Of a stretch of DNA of 41,926 nt, positions 3,001 to 12,000 are shown one piece after another. The stretch comes from a virus. Position numbers: made by a program. How positions within the stretch are numbered: position 1 is the stretch's first letter; each line of letters begins with the position of its first letter. The stretch spans positions 1-41,926 of IMG/VR virus record IMGVR_UViG_3300045988_155081; one strand, given 5' to 3'.

Positions 3001-6000
3001 CTCTATCGACTTCACTATCTTTGCTGCCAAACAACCAATCAAGTAACATTTTTCTTCTCCTTTATAAGTTTTTTAATTACCTTGTCAAGTGATTTTATCG
3101 GACACTTTTCATAAGTGTTTTCAAAACTCACAAAATCATAATGACCGTCCAAAAGGCACGCATATTTCGTTACTACTGAACAGCACACATCACAAGGCTT
3201 TAATTCGTGTACATACTTATGACAATTACATTCTTTACAACTCTGCGGCTTGTCTTTCTCAAAAGCATAAAACCGTTTCATTGCAGTTGCCCTTTTTTCA
3301 TTTTATCGTAATAGTCCCTAATGGCAATATCCACTTGTTTCGTAAAGGATATTCCATAATACCCCTTAATATCACTCATTTTCCTATGAGTGCTTTCGCT
3401 GATTTTGATACTTCTTTTCGTTTCTTGTTTTTCTTTCGAGTTTTCCATTTCTAACCTCCAACTATTTATCATTATACCATTTATTTATCCGCTTGTCAAC
3501 CACTTGCGACTACTTTGACAATGTTTTTTTATACTTTTTTTCTTGACTTTATAGGTGGTCTATGGTAGTATTTCCTTATAGATAAAACCAAATTAGGAGA
3601 TTTGTTATGATTTGCCCGAATTGCAAAAGTGATGATGTAAAAATTCAAGTTGTTGCCGAACAGAAAAAGCGTGGCGTTCTCGGTGTTTGCCTTTGGCTTA
3701 TTCTCGGTTTCTTTACTTGCGGTGTCGCACTTCTCTTTCCTTTACTTATAAAGAAAGGTAGTAAAACCAAACAATATGCTATTTGCCAAAATTGCGGTCA
3801 TCGCTGGGAAGTTTAATTTTTCTTAACTTTTTTGCAAAAACCGCTTGACAAACGCATAAAGCAAGCATATAATAGACTTGTAATCGGTATTCGGTGAGTG
3901 ATAGCATTGAGTATCGGCAACTGAATATCGGTTATCCTAAACCGCTTAAACAACCCCGCCTATCACAATAAGGGAAGTTTAAGTGGTTTTTTTATGGATA
4001 AAAGGAGATTGCCTATGGCAGAAAGAAGAATGTTTGCAAAAACAATAATAGATAGCGACGCGTTTCTTGATATGCCCTTGTCGGCACAAGCGTTATATTT
4101 TCACTTATCAATGCGTGCGGACGATGACGGTTTTATCAATAACCCGAAAAAACTGCAACGAATGGTTGGGTGCGCCGATGACGATATGAGATTGCTTGTC
4201 GCAAAGGCTTTTATTATTCCGTTCGAGAGCGGAGTTGTGGTAATTAAGCATTGGCGAATAAATAATTACATACGGAACGACCGCTATAAACCGACGAATT
4301 ACACCGAAGAAATGGCGCAATTACAGGTCAAGGAAAACGGTGCTTATACCGAGAAGTTACCGCTTGGTATACCAAATGGATACCAAATGGATACCCAGTA
4401 TAGGTTAGGTAAGGATAGGTTAGATAAGAATAGTATAGAAGAAAAAGACATAAATGTAGAAAAAGAAAGCCCGACGGACAAGCCGTCGTCGCCCGCTCCA
4501 AAACACAAGTATGGGCAATATAAGAATGTTTTATTGACTGAAAAGGAATATAACACGCTTATCGGAATGACCGACGGAAAGGAAGCAATAGAGTTTTTTG
4601 GAGAATACCGAGCCTACAAAGGTTACAAAGCAAAGAGCGACTATTTGGCGATAAGAAAATGGGTTTTCAACGCACTTAAAGAACAACGAACGAAGAACGG
4701 CAAGGCGAACTTCACCGAGCGTGAGTACACCAAAGAGCAGTTGGATATAATAGGACGCGTGCCGAACATTGAAGATTACGACTTATAAGGAGTGAATTAT
4801 GATTATAAAATGTAAAACATTAGGGTTGATAAAACTCACGGAGGTTGAAGCAAATAACAGGATATTAGTTACACAAGGCTTGTCAATCGACGAATTAAGT
4901 AAATTATGGAAATGGTATTATAATATCCCACCTCACGAGCCTATTTATCTTACAATGCCGACAAAATTATATAATTCTACGCATATATGCAATAGACCTC
5001 CGTGTAAAAATGTTGCTGAATTATTTACTGAACAAGGCATAAAAGTAGTAGAAGAAAACTTTTAACGGTTTATAAGGAGTGAATATGAACATAGAAATTG
5101 ACAAGGTATATAATATGGACTGCATTGACCTTATGCGAGAAATGGCAAAGGATGGGCAACAGGCTAACTTATTGCTGACCGATATACCATATAATGCCGT
5201 AAATAGGAAAGACAATGGGTTGCGTTTGCTTGATAAACAAAACGCTGATATTTTAACTTTTGACTTGCAACAATACTTACAATGTGCCGATAAAGTGATA
5301 AAAGACAATTTTGTTATTTTTTGTGGTAACGGGCAAATAAGTGAAATATTTAAGTTTTTCGCGGATAAAGGCTATACAACAAGACTTTTAGTGTGGGAAA
5401 AATCAAACCCGTCGCCTATGAATGGCGAATATTGTTATTTGAGCGGAATTGAAACAGCCATATATGCAAAGAAAAAGGGTGGGACATTCAACGCTTTTTG
5501 CAAAAATACTGTATTCAAACATAATTCGGGCATAAGAGAAATACACCCTACCCAAAAACCATTGTCGCTATGGTATGAACTTCTGGGCGACCTGACAAAT
5601 GAGAATGATTTAGTGCTTGATACCTGTATGGGAAGTTTTACAACTGCGGTTGCTTGCCACAAAATGCAAAGGCACTTTATCGGGGCGGAACTTGACAAGG
5701 AATATTTTGCACTCGGTCAAAAACGATTGCAAGAAGTACAAAATCAAATATCAATGTTTGACTTATAAGGAGTGAAACAATGAAATTTCCAACATTTGAA
5801 GAAATTGATAAGAGTTTTTCTTCCATTCTTGTATCCCTTGCTAAAAACCGCGATAATTACGCGAGTTTCACTACCGACACATTAAAGTAAGTGTAAGTCG
5901 CCGCAACGCCCGTGTTGACAAAGGTCAGGTCGATTGATTGAGTGCCTGTACCCGCGCAAGGACAAGCGTCCCTAACTTCCACTATGGTCGCCGTTGAAAA

Positions 6001-9000: not shown

Positions 9001-12000
9001 ACATATTGACCGAATTTTATAATGCTCGGATTGTTTATTTTTAGCACAAATTGTTCGGGAAAGGAAAATTTTAAGACATACCACGCGCAAAGATACACGC
9101 ACACAAGGTATATCATCGCACGGATAACGTTCTTGTTCATTTCCTATCCCCCTACAATTCGTAATATGCAATCAATAAGCATAAAATTAAGAGTATGAAT
9201 AATCCGCTCATAATCTTATAGAGTTTCATTTTCATACCCTTTGTGTTTTGTTATCTTTTAGCGCAAAAATCGTCAAAACTGCCGATAAACGCACCGTTTG
9301 CAACAGCCGCACGGAACTCGTTAAGAAGTTCGAGTTTTGCCTGTTCTTGCTGTCTTTGTTCGGCTTCTGCTTTCTTTTGCTCGATAAACTCATCAAGCGA
9401 TACAAGGCAGTTGCCGTCCGCCACTTCACGGCGATATTCCGCTTCATACATATCGTGGTCGGCTTTCGCTTTTGCGACTGCTTGTGCTTCTTCGTTTGCT
9501 TTTTGTGCTTCCGCTTCCGCATACGCCTGCTCTACAAGGTCAACGGACTTGCCGAAACCGAGAGCCTTTGCGGTTTTACGAAGAGCCACCATAATGGGGC
9601 TTTCCCAACCCGCACTCACACAACCCAAACAAAGAATTGCCATAAGTAAGCCAAACACGAGTACACCGATTATGATACTTGCCCACAAAGGGATTTGCAC
9701 ATTCCCATACACAATCCCACACGAAGCACCTGCGCCTGACATTGCACTTGCGATAAACGAAGCAACAATACCACATATCGTTTTAGGATTGTTTTTAAGG
9801 TAAATTGCAAAAGCACTTTGCTTTTTTGCTTTCTTTTCCTTGACAACTTTTTCCTTTGCCATAGTTTTACCTCTTTTTTTGTTTATATTTGTCGCACAAA
9901 ATGCTATAAAAATAGCCCCAACTTTTGGAAGAGTTTTGACCGCAATAGGTTTAGTGGCTTCCATAAGTTTAACCGCCTTGCTTGTTTGCACCGCTACCTT
10001 TGTTACTTTAAGTGATGAAACTAAAACGACAATCGCTTTAAGTGCATAAACGGCAAGTGCAACCGATAACGCACCTGTAAATATATCGGCTATGCTTATA
10101 ACAAGCGTCGATACATTTGATTTCAAGTCGCTCCGATACGCTACAAGTATTTTAAGTATCATCACAAAAGACAACAAACTTGCAATAAGCGAGCAAATTT
10201 GCCAATCTATTGAAGTTAGGCACATTGAAACAATGCCGAAAAGCAAGTCAATAACCGACAAAATAAGCAATGTTCGATTATCAAGAGTCTTTCGGACAAT
10301 CTTTTGTTTCAGCACCTCTTCGTCTGACATAGTTAAAATACGGGAATATAGGGGGCTTCTGCGGGTTCTTGTACGGGGGCTTCCGTAACAACGGGCTGAT
10401 CAACGACTTCGGGGGCAACTTCTTCTACGGGAGCGGGGGCGGGTACAACTTCTTCTTCCACGGGTTCTTCCACGAAAAGCATAAGATAATCAAGCGTTTT
10501 CTTTTTTGCCGAAATATCAAATGCCGCTTCTTCCTTTAAGAGAATATCCGCAAATGCGCTGATAAGCACATCGCTCCAACCGCGCTGTTCGCCGATAGCC
10601 TTTGCTTCGTTGAAAGCGTGTAAGTCGTTATCCGCAATTTCGCCTTGCAGTCTTGCAATTTCACCAAGTAATTTTTCCGAGTTTACTTTTAACATAGTTT
10701 ACACTCCGTTTTTAATATTATAAAAGGCTCAAAAGTTCAAGAGCCGCTTTGTCGGGGAATATTGTTACGCCGAAAGAGTTTTGCACAAGCAACAAAATCA
10801 CATATACAATCACGCCAATAATCGCCATAATTGCAAGCGATGAACAAATCACAAGTGCGGGTTTGCCGAAGTTCGCTATTTGCATAAAGACTTCGTTTAC
10901 AGCGTTAAATATCGAAAGAATTATTGTAACAAGGCAATAGGGCAATGTTAAGATACACAACATAAGCACCATAAGCGGTATGCCGTACGACCTATCCGCA
11001 TAGGTTTTAGGCTGTTCTCTCTCATAAACATATTCCGTGCCGTCCTTGCGACGGAAACGGCGCATATCATCAGCCTTTTCGCCCTCTTTAATAACTCTCT
11101 TCTTTTGTACTTTACGCAAGTTGGAAAAGTCAAATTCCAAAATAGGACGGAAACTCTTATAAAATGCTTCCGCTTTGTTTTGTTTTGCCTCTAACTTCTT
11201 GCGTTCTTCTTCAAGTACCTTGTTTTCAAAGTTGAGTTTTAACTCGTCTTGCTTTGTCTTTTTAATATCCGCCAAAAAGTCGCGGTTTTCACGCGTTTCT
11301 TCAACGGACTTTTCAAGAGTAAGTGCGTGGACGATTTCCTTACCCGTTTCATTTACATCGCGCTTGCCCGAAACAAAATCTTCTTGCATACGAGCAGTTG
11401 CAATGTTGGTGAACGTGGAAACTTCTTTCGGCACGTCAGGAACGGCGAGATTTGCGTTCTGCGCCACTTTCTCCGTTTCTTCGACAACTTCATCGTCAGA
11501 AAGGTTTTCGCCGATTTCAGTAGTGTTTTCGTCAGCCATTTGGTCTTTCATTTCGCTTTCAAATTCGTCAGCCCTATCTTGCCAATCCATTTTTACCCTC
11601 AATTAAAAAGCGCACAAACACATAGGTGTCTGCGCACTCACTAAATAAAGAATAGCACACAAAAGTGGTTATGTCAACACCTTTATGCCAAAAAAGTAAT
11701 GATTTTTTTAATTTATTCTTCGGTATCGCCGTCAAGTGCGGTTTCGTCGGTGCTTTCTTCTTCCGCCACATATTCTTCAATTCCCGTGAGTTGCTCATTA
11801 AATTGATAATAATTAGTGCGAAGTCCGAGATATTCTTCAAGCGTTAGTGCGACTACGCCCGATAAATCTTCAAGTGGATATGCCGTAAAATTGTGCCTAT
11901 CCGTGGGTTTTACAAACACCCTTGTCTTATCGTCATTATAAGTGAGCATATTTTGCTCTGCGAATTTAGTAAAATCTATGTTCATAATTACCCCTTAATA

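Follow-up and report, generated by a model that had tools for sequence, protein, structure and literature searches.

A conserved three-gene membrane module occupies the holin-endolysin slot of a gut phage genome without recognisable lysins

Introduction

The lysis slot of siphoviruses infecting Firmicutes lies after the tail fibre genes; phiCD111, for example, carries a holin and an endolysin directly downstream of its tail fibres and a tail peptidase as well. Many holin genes have dual starts of the λ S105/S107 type. A membrane lesion alone is insufficient to lyse a walled Gram-positive cell. The lysis module of the B. subtilis prophage PBSX (XhlA/XhlB/XlyA) still encodes an amidase; XhlA itself, a coiled coil with a C-terminal membrane anchor, acts with the holin and is encoded downstream of small post-fibre ORFs. 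Moron or lysogenic-conversion genes, such as those for the toxins of S. aureus and S. pyogenes phages, sit downstream of the lysis genes in Gram-positive prophages. The C1q-like heads at the C-termini of BclA and F-BclA belong to fibres of the endospore surface (PF18573; PDB 9H38; PMC12357932).

Here we describe the corresponding slot in the IMG/VR virus record IMGVR_UViG_3300045988_155081, whose 41,926 nucleotides are referred to below as the window. The slot holds a block of eleven genes, g1 to g11 (Table 1).

Results

A complete genome without recognisable lysins

The window is a closed circle of ~41.9 kb whose termini overlap by 55 nt, so that no gene lies beyond it; its GC content is 41.8%. 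Pfam searches over every annotated ORF gave no match to amidase, lysozyme, CHAP, NlpC/P60, peptidase or holin families, and no lysin or holin family was matched by any of the 74 other ORFs that reach 75 aa in the six frames, the junction ORF included. PHROGs, searched with the block and most other genes (head and packaging genes left out), likewise returned no lysin or holin family. Profile searches of the window found no tail-associated peptidoglycan hydrolase, in contrast to phiCD111. Neither database assigned a family to about half of the late ORFs, and many tail and early ORFs also received no annotation from them. A first-pass annotation had reported no recognisable lysis cassette, and this was borne out on a complete circular genome by Pfam in any frame and by PHROGs, in which no standard endolysin or holin rose above threshold. 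Recognisable lysins are absent from this complete gut phage genome. Outside the block, the sole conventional holin-like candidate is an ORF at 262-549, whose match to Phage_holin_3_6 (E 0.005, 17.3 bits) falls below the gathering score of 28.4.

The capsid module is nearest to those of C. difficile, Roseburia and C. tetani phages, and the major capsid protein of phiCD111 is 48.6% identical to that of the window. The positional argument for a lysis slot after the tail fibres proved sound, since phiCD111 has its holin and endolysin where the block lies. All ORFs listed in the first-pass annotation were found on the minus strand, at or near the positions then assigned, and a second, independent gene call on an identical contig agrees with them (290, 120, 359, 197, 58, 200, 50, 117, 72, 199 and 161 aa).

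Table 1. Features of the block and its surroundings in the window
Feature	Position	Strand	Description and basis
g0	11713..11985	-	small acidic 90-aa ORF after last tail-fibre gene; gene calls
Promoter match	11649..11677	-	sigma-70-like, TTGACA-17-TATTCT with TG; 10/12 consensus positions
Hairpin	11608..11639	-	strong hairpin then UUUUUAAUU, between promoter match and g1 start; fold and sequence
Module A	9251-11590	-	g1, g2 and g3
g1	10718..11590	-	290-aa membrane protein; acidic N-terminus, long helix, C-terminal TM hairpin
g2	10333..10695	-	120-aa soluble protein; helical N-terminus, acidic P/E/V-rich tail
g3	9251..10330	-	359-aa membrane protein; 5-6 TM segments, C-terminal cytoplasmic helical hairpin
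g3, putative short isoform	9251..9862	-	203 aa, 2 TM segments and coiled coil; AGAGGT-7 nt-ATG at 9862
Module B			g4-g6
g4	8547..9140	-	197-aa polytopic membrane protein; hydropathy
g5	8423..8599	-	58-aa acidic ORF overlapping both neighbours; gene calls, SD sequence
g6	7849..8451	-	200-aa membrane protein, basic helical C-terminus; gene call, hydropathy
Hairpin	7805..7829	-	intrinsic-terminator-like, between modules B and C; -16.5 kcal/mol, then UUUUUU
Module C			g7-g11
g7	7614..7766	-	50-aa ORF; gene call, GGGGGA SD sequence
g8	7258..7611	-	117 aa, Q/P-rich N-terminus; phrog_21718 (function-unknown family), E 2.6e-9
g9	7062..7280	-	72-aa Q/M-rich protein; homologue in L018, 43% identity
g10	6405..7004	-	199 aa; Gly-flanked hydrophobic segment, helical region, Cys-rich C-terminus
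g11	5857..6342	-	161-aa C1q/TNF-like (BclA_C-like) head, no collagen stalk; Pfam, PDB
Hairpin	5848..5864	-	weak, terminator-like, end of late transcription unit; -8.6 kcal/mol, z-score -2.1
95-aa ORF	262..549	-	2 strong TM segments, early gene cluster; hydropathy and Pfam

Only the first three genes of the block are conserved

The block had been proposed to form one system of 11-12 genes. Comparison with related genomes indicates instead a composite of three units, modules A, B and C, in which only the first three genes (the trio) are conserved and the other eight are dispensable in close relatives. All 14 close relatives (93-99% identity) retain the trio, and in 5 of the 14 the late operon stops right after g3. 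Modules B and C vary from one close relative to the next by deletion, truncation or allelic replacement, the replacement in L003 beginning at the hairpin that separates them. Conservation of the gene neighbourhood thus holds for the trio and its post-fibre slot but not for modules B and C, which are absent from five close relatives (L005, L008, L012, L013 and L016).

Beyond these relatives, at least five other uncultured phage types of 27-95 kb carry the three genes together, each with its architecture unchanged (trio-bearing types measure 27, 43, 52.7, 66.6, 77.7, 92 and 94.6 kb). There the trio always ends the late operon after the tail fibres, and nothing follows it except ORFs like those of modules B and C or a small number without annotation. 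No Pfam lysin was found within ±10 kb of the trio in any other trio-bearing type inspected, a span beyond which a lysin could still sit, and the neighbouring genes at these loci do carry Pfam annotations. GC content is low (32-38%) in most contigs with the trio, and none of 50,697 deposited phage genomes contains it.

Upstream of the trio, g0 matched nothing in Pfam or PHROGs; an ORF of ~55-64 aa takes its position in other trio-bearing phages, with no detectable similarity to it. The claim that the block has its own promoter did not hold up: the element is a consensus match that is not conserved, in a region where 24 promoter-like matches were seen against 14.5 expected by chance, and at distant loci the trio starts almost without a gap after the preceding late gene. 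The hairpin between this match and g1 appears terminator- or attenuator-like (-21.8 kcal/mol, z-score -5.3, none of 200 shuffles as stable), and the weak hairpin that closes the late unit is convergent with a plus-strand methylase gene.

Two large membrane proteins and a soluble one

Composition and hydropathy agree with the earlier description of g1 as an acidic coiled-coil protein with two TM helices (52 D+E; both helices C-terminal) and of g2 as P/E-rich. The g1 family comprises at least 105 clusters that share an invariant motif, FRPILEFDF ... DRSYGIPLMVLML, with invariant R, P, E, D, Y and G residues; among 1.84 billion proteins it has 52 representatives, none fused to another domain. The g3 family is larger (at least 160 clusters), with a typical length of ~250 aa. 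Counterparts of g2 with the same architecture adjoin g1- and g3-like genes in L034, L035, L036, L047, L050, L051 and L052.

Structure modelling with AF2 covered two proteins, g1 and g3, both predicted to be helical, to sit in the membrane and to carry large coiled-coil domains in the cytoplasm. The g1 model is entirely helical (mean pLDDT 78); that of g3 has a mean pLDDT of 70, rising above 90 in the C-terminal hairpin (residues 260-344). Foldseek matched g1 to nothing in PDB or BFVD and g3 to nothing in PDB, so that no standard holin or endolysin fold was recovered. No match to g1 came from a PDB profile search or from INPHARED, nor did INPHARED match a typical member of the g3 family. Neither g1 nor g3 is similar to any holin family in Pfam or PHROGs. 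At 290 and 359 aa they are far larger than known holins, and their residue conservation is unusual for holins; both observations count against a lytic role.

The internal start of g3

Comparative data strongly support the suggestion that the 359-aa protein is made in two forms. The methionine at the internal start is invariant in the close g3 family, and across the wide family the same column holds M in 80 of 104 sequences and V in 19. At the DNA level, AAGGAGG, AAGGAAGG or AAAGGAG precedes the internal start codon, ATG or GTG, also in sequences that encode other amino acids there. In these alignments, then, start codon and SD sequence are conserved as nucleotides, and because they are conserved across the family, two isoforms of g3 are likely made.

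Modules B and C

Hydropathy confirmed g4 as a polytopic membrane protein. By architecture alone, counterparts of g4 can be placed after the trio in L035 and L051; the BLASTP matches cover no more than an N-terminal fragment of 33 aa in L034 and a stretch of 62 aa in L036. L051 has a 46-aa ORF at the position of g5 and a homologue of g6 (11569-12147, E 1e-6). g6 also weakly matches phrog_10353 (E 0.002); it had been described as a membrane protein fused to an HTH, of which the membrane protein stands and the HTH found no support in Pfam (best E 0.07 on the C-terminus alone).

In module C, the composition of g8 and g9 agrees with their description as small Q/P- and Q/M-rich proteins. g8 has a syntenic homologue in L018; at its position in L019 lies a 149-aa ORF of similar Q-rich make-up that BLASTP does not match. 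g10, which matches phrog_16490 (E 3e-5), is rich in Gly and Cys as described (25 and 8 residues), but its hydrophobic segment is short and below the standard threshold for a TM anchor. The reported C1q/BclA-C-like jelly roll of g11 was recovered as matches to Pfam BclA_C (E 2e-7; 31 bits against a gathering score of 38) and to the C1q-like head of F-BclA (PDB 9H38, E 0.0017), and g11 has homologues in L019 and L051.

Homologues of g10 occur in L018, L019 and the C. perfringens phages CPD1, XP41-N3 and HMD-PC1. Canonical lysins were observed in CPD1, XP41-N3, L018 and L019, and the C. perfringens phages with a g10 homologue have an amidase and a holin. In L018 module C follows an NlpC/P60-like lysin, and in L019 it follows holin_4-like and amidase-like genes, these types being assigned by eye from the translations rather than by HMM. 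Module C thus co-occurs, by gene content, with canonical lysins, and its place directly downstream of holin and endolysin in other gut phages points to cargo rather than lysis machinery. The alternative that the block is cargo accordingly fits the eight dispensable genes g4-g11, with g7-g11 found as a cassette beside canonical holin and endolysin, but not the trio. Superinfection exclusion, also raised at first, gained no support: PADLOC gave no evidence for exclusion or defence, only two marginal matches (Cas7b and CARF_TM models, E above 1e-3) that we take as chance.

Discussion

Our best explanation, which we hold tentatively, makes the trio a non-canonical module for lysis or egress that acts on the membrane, and modules B and C optional cargo. 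By its conservation and position the trio fills the holin-endolysin slot in this phage and in a set of uncultured relatives, and as the only conserved genes of the block g1-g3 are plausible lysis or egress candidates. We infer the lytic function, the logic of the isoforms and the fate of the wall as follows. The trio would act on the cytoplasmic membrane, into which g1 and g3 would insert via TM hairpins bearing their large cytoplasmic domains, with g2 as their soluble partner. The long and short isoforms of g3 could set timing, as holin/antiholin pairs do. Since no peptidoglycan hydrolase is encoded, wall breakdown would be either unneeded, in a wall-less host, or left to host autolysins acting once the membrane is de-energised. 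Modules B and C would be horizontally shuffled additions downstream of the lysis slot and not lysis genes. Pfam, PHROGs and PDB searches revealed no homology that links the trio to lysis.

It is possible, if somewhat doubtful, that the endolysin is missing because the host has no peptidoglycan wall, as in a Mollicutes-like gut Firmicute (e.g. Anaeroplasmataceae, Acholeplasmatales or RF39); disruption of the membrane by the trio would then suffice for release, which complements the lytic explanation rather than excluding it. The window's lack of a tail-associated hydrolase is in keeping with this, as are the lack of lysins in several unrelated genome types that have only the trio in common, the low GC of most trio contigs, and the trio's absence from deposited phages, as expected for uncultured hosts. 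The sole deposited phage with a similar tail-fibre module, sharing three syntenic genes, is the Anaeroplasmataceae phage NatCom_34063, which is 45% identical to the window's 522-aa fibre over the first 95 aa and 67% over the last 54 aa; a holin but no endolysin is annotated in it. In the window, strong use of SD sequences and a helicase loader resembling DnaD fit Firmicutes sensu lato, Mollicutes included. However, the host of NatCom_34063 is named only in its database record and organism name, and we assume the label to be predicted rather than derived from culture, the paper defining its order having used iPHoP host prediction. NatCom_34063 itself lacks the trio, and the window's GC is ~9 points higher than its own; typical Anaeroplasma GC is also below that of the window. 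Module C is common to phages of walled Clostridia, and the capsid module, too, is nearest to clostridial and Roseburia phages. A host sequence was not recovered: the single match in GTDB is a 3-kb contig in a Bacteroidales MAG, probably mis-binned.

We consider it unlikely that the trio serves some other purpose as a late membrane module (for example to exclude superinfecting phages, remodel the membrane for assembly or control the entry of DNA), while unrecognised genes elsewhere, for example the two-TM ORF at 262-549 and a novel hydrolase, carry out lysis. The lack of resemblance to any holin family, the atypical size and residue conservation of g1 and g3, and the many unannotated tail and early ORFs would suit such a division of labour; so would the weak holin match at 262-549, whose existence outside the block also counts against lysis by the trio. 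But genes for exclusion usually vary and have their expression driven from the lysogeny region, whereas the trio belongs to the core, runs co-linear with the late genes and, in distant phages, lies directly against the fibre genes. g1 and g3 are moreover predicted to lie almost wholly in the cytoplasm or membrane, with little exposed outside the cell; PADLOC offered nothing beyond its two chance matches, and no frame encodes a recognisable hydrolase. Improbable, in our judgement, is a standard endolysin too divergent for profile HMMs, for instance within an unannotated tail or fibre ORF. The room for one lies in the half of the late ORFs without a family, given that two proteins were modelled. 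Yet the 446-aa and 532-aa ORFs gave nothing in Pfam, PHROGs or PDB sequence searches; the 446-aa ORF, which adjoins the block, behaves as a tail protein, since its 45%-identical homologue in L047 lies inside the tail module, several genes from the trio; and the lack of lysins repeats at every trio locus examined.

Comparison with known systems

Like the holin-endolysin cassettes of phiCD111 and phiCD38-2, the block closes the series of late genes directly behind the tail fibres, and trio and cassettes both include membrane proteins. The trio differs in having no muralytic enzyme at all and membrane proteins 2-4 times larger than holins, with big cytoplasmic coiled-coil domains; no similarity in sequence or fold was found. 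The putative dual start of g3 resembles that of many holin genes, but its isoforms would differ by ~156 residues that include TM helices, against 2-3 residues for those of λ-type holins. g1 is like PBSX XhlA in combining a coiled coil with a C-terminal membrane anchor, although Pfam XhlA does not match it. NatCom_34063 (PV036447), assigned to a wall-less host family, has a fibre module syntenic with and partly similar to that of the window; it differs in virus order, genome size (63 kb), GC content (33%) and the lack of g1 and g3 homologues. g11 aligns to the head domain of BclA and F-BclA, but stands alone at 161 aa, with no collagen-like stalk or exosporium leader and a Pfam score below gathering. 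Modules B and C resemble morons in that they vary among near-identical genomes and have terminator-like hairpins at their flanks, and in that the cargo of L018 and L019 follows directly after the lysin gene; they are unlike known morons in that no virulence, defence or metabolic family is recognised in them.

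Genome layout and completeness

The genome in the window is siphovirus-like. Its late operon, on the minus strand, starts with the large terminase gene and extends to position 5857, in the order SPP1-type portal, major capsid protein, tape measure, Dit, Tal-like protein and several fibre genes (to 11995). Its major capsid protein is ~48% identical to those of the C. difficile phages phiCD38-2 and phiCD111, the Roseburia phage Jekyll and the C. tetani phage phiCT453A, and no similar DNA was found among deposited phages by megablast with the block (g1-g11) and the structural region as queries. 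We found no tyrosine or large serine integrase in the window, only a small serine recombinase gene, and no sign of lysogeny. The first 55 nt are identical to the last 55 nt, and an identical contig spans the junction uninterrupted, with a 124-aa ORF there. The window is thus a complete circular assembly of ~41.87 kb, with nothing hidden outside it. A 68-kb relative contig, with ~25 kb of extra sequence, was considered as a simple dimer and rejected, since it has a single capsid gene.

Several other features lie outside the block. A plus-strand island of higher GC content (~0.45-0.48) encodes an FtsK/SpoIIIE-like ATPase and four small ORFs, and a Pistol self-cleaving ribozyme sits between two of its ORFs. 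A GP20-a RNA motif is found between the portal and scaffold genes. An AT-rich, ORF-poor stretch of ~2.2 kb precedes the terminase gene and contains a perfect 17-nt direct repeat, TATGTATAAATATACAA. Because several relatives' contigs terminate at window ~33.3-34.4 kb, this stretch may hold the ends of the physical genome or else a regulatory or origin region. Two close relatives (L055 and L066) carry a ~1.2 kb insertion within the large-terminase gene, for which an intron, an intein and a homing element are candidates.

Features of the window and the evidence on which they were placed
Feature	Position	Strand	Basis
Block, g1-g11	5857-11590	-	two gene calls
Module A (trio), g1	10718-11590	-
Module A (trio), g2	10333-10695	-
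Module A (trio), g3	9251-10330	-
g3 internal start	9862	-	AGAGGT 7 nt ahead of ATG
Module B, g4-g6	7849-9140	-
Module C, g7-g11	5857-7766	-
Promoter-like site, hairpin and U-run	11608-11677	-
Terminator-like hairpin, before g1	11608-11639	-	folding
Terminator-like hairpin, between g6 and g7	7805-7829	-	folding
Terminator-like hairpin, after g11	5848-5864	-	folding
Holin-like ORF	262-549	-
446-aa ORF	11995-13335
Large terminase	29752-31728	-
Terminase insertion site (L055, L066)	31071-31080
GP20-a RNA motif	27750-27839	-	RF02991, 54.6 bits
AT-rich, ORF-poor stretch	31729-33978
17-nt direct repeat	33758 and 33778
Plus-strand island	33979-36727	+
ORF before ribozyme	33979-34632	+
Pistol ribozyme	34640-34715	+	Rfam RF02679, 60.5 bits (gathering score 34.5)
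ORF after ribozyme	34742-35029	+
FtsK/SpoIIIE-like ATPase	35229-36254	+
Small serine recombinase	40233-40931

No recognisable endolysin or holin

The first-pass annotation had reported that the usual position of the lysis cassette is taken by 11-12 uncharacterised genes. An independent gene call agrees on eleven ORFs, and computed values bear out the composition and hydropathy ascribed to their products; the helix-turn-helix proposed for g6 was undetectable with Pfam. The positional argument is sound: the cultured phage phiCD111 has precisely such an arrangement, its tail peptidase being followed by fibres and then by holin and endolysin.

Pfam detected no peptidoglycan hydrolase domain (Amidase_2/3/5, GH25, CHAP, NlpC/P60, M23, transglycosylase and the like) and no holin in any annotated ORF, and a six-frame Pfam scan of the other 74 ORFs (75 aa or longer) was equally negative for amidases, lysozymes, CHAP, NlpC/P60, peptidases and holins. 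PHROGs gave no lysin or holin in the block or in the genome outside the head and packaging genes. Taken singly, the block proteins matched Pfam no better than E = 0.02 and, in PHROGs, only families of unknown function, phrog_21718 (g8) and phrog_16490 (g10). A tail-associated hydrolase is likewise missing from the window. Structure-based comparison covered the two modelled proteins, g1 and g3, which are both all-helical and had no match. A lysin in another frame or beyond the window is ruled out by the six-frame scan and the closed circle, and we conclude that the absence of a lysin is real at the sensitivity of profile HMMs.

As a holin we would have accepted a protein of ~60-150 aa with 1-4 TM segments, a charged C-terminus and a holin-family match. 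One 95-aa product, encoded within the early/recombination gene cluster, has a holin-like architecture (two strong TM helices and a charged C-terminus) and matches Pfam Phage_holin_3_6 below threshold (E 0.005); in this detail the earlier observation is weaker than it was put. For g1 (290 aa) and g3 (359 aa) there was no holin-family match in Pfam or PHROGs. We also considered the 446-aa ORF as a hidden endolysin and rejected it: it has no Pfam, PHROG, PDB or INPHARED match, and its homologue is placed inside the tail module of L047, a more distant trio-bearing contig. For the suggestion that the block is an exclusion system no evidence was found: comparison of the block with PADLOC models of known defence and exclusion systems gave two marginal matches only, with E above 1e-3.

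The block is composite

The window's phage is present at 93-99% identity in 14 IMG/VR contigs and 6 further metagenome contigs (2 named human gut). Homology is unbroken from the fibres through g1, g2 and g3 in every relative aligned to the window. In five of them (L005, L008, L012, L013 and L016) it ends right after g3 (window ~9150), and convergent methyltransferase, PAPS-reductase-like and DnaD-like genes follow; another (L007) has lost an internal segment that begins in g4 and reaches into g10, and in L003 g8-g10 are present as diverged alleles. Since g4-g11 are lost or replaced in relatives while g1-g3 are always kept, g1-g3 are core and g4-g11 dispensable or exchangeable. Terminator-like hairpins coincide exactly with the module borders. 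The C5 DNA methyltransferase of L016 (12091-14361, minus strand; 756 aa) is split by an intein-like insert; in other relatives it has 334-518 aa.

The promoter that the first-pass annotation gave the block does match the consensus, but the region is rich in such matches, with 24 where 14.5 are expected. The promoter-like site is followed at once by a very stable hairpin and U-run, which precede the start of g1 and look like a promoter-proximal terminator, one that antitermination would have to overcome; the arrangement is specific to the window's clade. No convincing promoter was found in the window for modules B and C.

The trio is a new pair of membrane-protein families with a small partner

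Used alone as query, g3 found six sequence-level relatives only; in each of the three examined, genes resembling g1 and g2 lie upstream, and in some a gene resembling g4 follows. Homologues of g1 fall into at least 105 clusters (29-98% identity), or ~50 at 50% identity, and a profile of g3 with two distant neighbours found at least 160 clusters, counted at 90% identity, of ~250 aa. The g1 family has an invariant juxtamembrane motif, KAEAFY-x-FRPILEFDF ... KTYxDRSYGIPLMVLML. A HMMER search with g1 over 1.84 billion representatives gave 52 clusters, all of 100-300 aa save one spurious 1588-aa match, and g1 fused to an enzyme domain was discarded as a possibility, no case occurring among these representatives.

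At eight loci on long contigs, large fibre proteins and a ~55-80-aa ORF are followed by g1-, g2- and g3-like genes, whose order varies; the g2-like proteins consist of a coiled coil and an acidic P/E/V tail. In most long contigs the trio ends the late operon and is followed by convergent replication genes or small ORFs; this position next to or after tail genes is seen in the window, L047, L049, L050, L051, L052, L135 and L137. The trio-bearing contigs (27, 43, 52.7, 66.6, 77.7, 92 and 94.6 kb) have differing replication modules. On none of them was a Pfam lysin detected within ±10 kb of the trio, where other genes were annotated. In L051, module-B-like and then g10/g11-like genes follow the trio, so that the A-B-C order recurs. 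Conservation of gene neighbourhood, proposed earlier as a check, thus separates a g1-g2-g3 unit that recurs in distant phages from g4-g11, which vary in close ones. The tail genes of some trio-bearing phages include a Glycos_transf_2 enzyme or a radical-SAM protein (L135 8600-9616, L137 1986-2573).

The trio was not found in 50,697 deposited phage genomes by tblastn with window g1, a typical g1 and a typical g3, nor were g1 and g3 found by local HMM search in an Anaeroplasmataceae phage, the human-gut phage scaffolds MT835524 and MT835537 or C. perfringens phages. Profile searches of IMG/VR and JGI metagenomes for more distant g3 contexts gave 97-99% relatives only. Foldseek searches with g1 (PDB, BFVD) and g3 (PDB) gave nothing better than E = 1, and with a PDB profile search included nothing fell below E = 0.6. 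By these comparisons the trio, which has no known relatives, consists of two new and well-delimited families of predicted membrane proteins and a small partner.

The AF2 model of g1 (98-sequence alignment; mean pLDDT 78) is all-helical: its N-terminal helix is followed by an acidic stretch that is disordered, then by a helix of 50 residues (102-151) and by a TM hairpin (204-273). That of g3 (mean pLDDT 70) has a TM-helix bundle, a poorly ordered basic linker and a second TM hairpin; the helical hairpin 260-344 is very confident. By the positive-inside rule, the large domains of both proteins would be cytoplasmic.

The internal start of g3 noticed earlier is kept across the family. Its Met is invariant among close relatives, and the aligned column of the wide family has Met in 80 and Val in 19 of 104 sequences, with no Ile or Leu, which is the pattern expected of an ATG/GTG start codon and not of a hydrophobic residue. 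Ahead of this codon the DNA has AAGGAAGG or AAGGAGG, and in L035, a more distant contig, AAAGGAG, despite differing encoded residues. The conserved start codon and upstream Shine-Dalgarno sequence make two g3 isoforms likely, which would have the last TM hairpin and coiled coil in common. At sequence level g3 therefore shows the alternative in-frame starts of holin/antiholin-type genes.

Modules B and C behave as cargo

Homologues of g10 occur in the C. perfringens phages CPD1, XP41-N3 and HMD-PC1, among early hypothetical genes; CPD1 and XP41-N3 have an annotated amidase and holin upstream. Gene order is kept in the human-gut scaffolds, g8-g9-g10 in MT835524 and g10-g11 in MT835537, and in both a canonical lysis pair lies just upstream of the cassette. 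We assigned these lysis genes, from their translations and by eye, as an NlpC/P60-like lysin with small TM proteins in MT835524 and as a holin_4-like gene with an Amidase_3-like/SPOR-like lysin in MT835537, where a small Sigma70_r4 protein precedes. Since module C accompanies standard lysis genes in other phages and close relatives can do without it, we read it as cargo and not lysis. Moron regions follow lysis genes in Gram-positive prophages, and module C appears to behave like them; both modules B and C vary in presence among near-identical genomes, as morons do. Consequently, the lysis/egress role once proposed for the whole block is limited to g1-g3, and the cargo alternative applies to g4-g11. 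Once modules B and C are seen as cargo that recurs as a cassette, they need no longer be mis-annotated as lysis genes.

The C1q/BclA-C-like assignment of g11 stands in part. Its score against PF18573 (BclA_C), 31.2 bits, does not reach the curated gathering score of 38, but an alignment was obtained with F-BclA in its C1q-like head (PDB 9H38, E 0.0017); F-BclA is a tip protein of endospore appendages (PMC12357932). The succession of a membrane-associated Cys-rich coiled-coil protein and a free C1q-like head suggests a putative surface or fibre-like assembly. A 102-107-aa helical protein (MEELEKIYDYVEEELADAEKYAK...), absent from the window, follows the BclA_C-like gene in four close relatives (L003, L004, L007 and L015) and in MT835524 (for example L003 15354-15677 and MT835524 13025-13333), and could belong to module C as well.

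A putative lysis module and its host

The trio is core, late and membrane-targeted, occupies the lysis slot, includes a dual-start gene and occurs in phages that show no lysin, within ±10 kb of it in those other than the window; most simply, it would be a putative lysis/egress module. The trio cannot by itself degrade peptidoglycan, and two readings of the host remain. The hosts of trio phages may have no cell wall, as the missing tail-associated hydrolase, the absence of lysins across unrelated genome types and the 32-38% GC of most trio contigs would suggest, although the window itself has 41.8% GC and its capsid genes and module C are common to phages of walled Clostridia. Among deposited phages a similar fibre module occurs only in the Anaeroplasmataceae phage NatCom_34063 (three syntenic genes; a 522-aa fibre 45% identical N-terminally and 67% C-terminally), which also points this way, having an annotated holin and no endolysin. 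However, it lacks the trio, its host is known from the record label only, with no paper traced for the record, and the paper defining its order used iPHoP predictions. Nothing relevant on endolysin-less phages of Mollicutes or RF39 came up in the literature searched. Alternatively, the host may have a wall, and autolysins of its own would complete lysis after membrane de-energisation; host autolysins are known to contribute in pneumococcal phages. A Bacteroidales host was rejected because of the strong Shine-Dalgarno sites and DnaD-like loader in the window; the sole GTDB match, a 3.1-kb contig in a Bacteroidales MAG, is regarded as mis-binned.

We offer, as a speculative proposal that we regard as less likely than not, that the trio lets tailed phages lyse their hosts without an endolysin, by a system not described before. 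If the hosts are wall-less (Mollicutes-like) gut Firmicutes, no lysis module would have been identified earlier for their siphoviruses; otherwise the trio would lyse walled hosts without a phage muralytic enzyme. In both cases the long/short pair of g3 isoforms would time lysis. The trio families are small, well defined and easily tested by expression, and the conserved internal start of g3 is a clean genetic handle. Viruses of wall-less gut Firmicutes are, to our knowledge, almost unknown, and the trio could supply a sequence signature for them. Nearly every tailed phage that infects walled bacteria is taken to encode an endolysin, and these enzymes serve as annotation markers and antibacterial leads; a set of gut phages with this cassette replaced by a conserved membrane trio would point to a novel way of ending infection.
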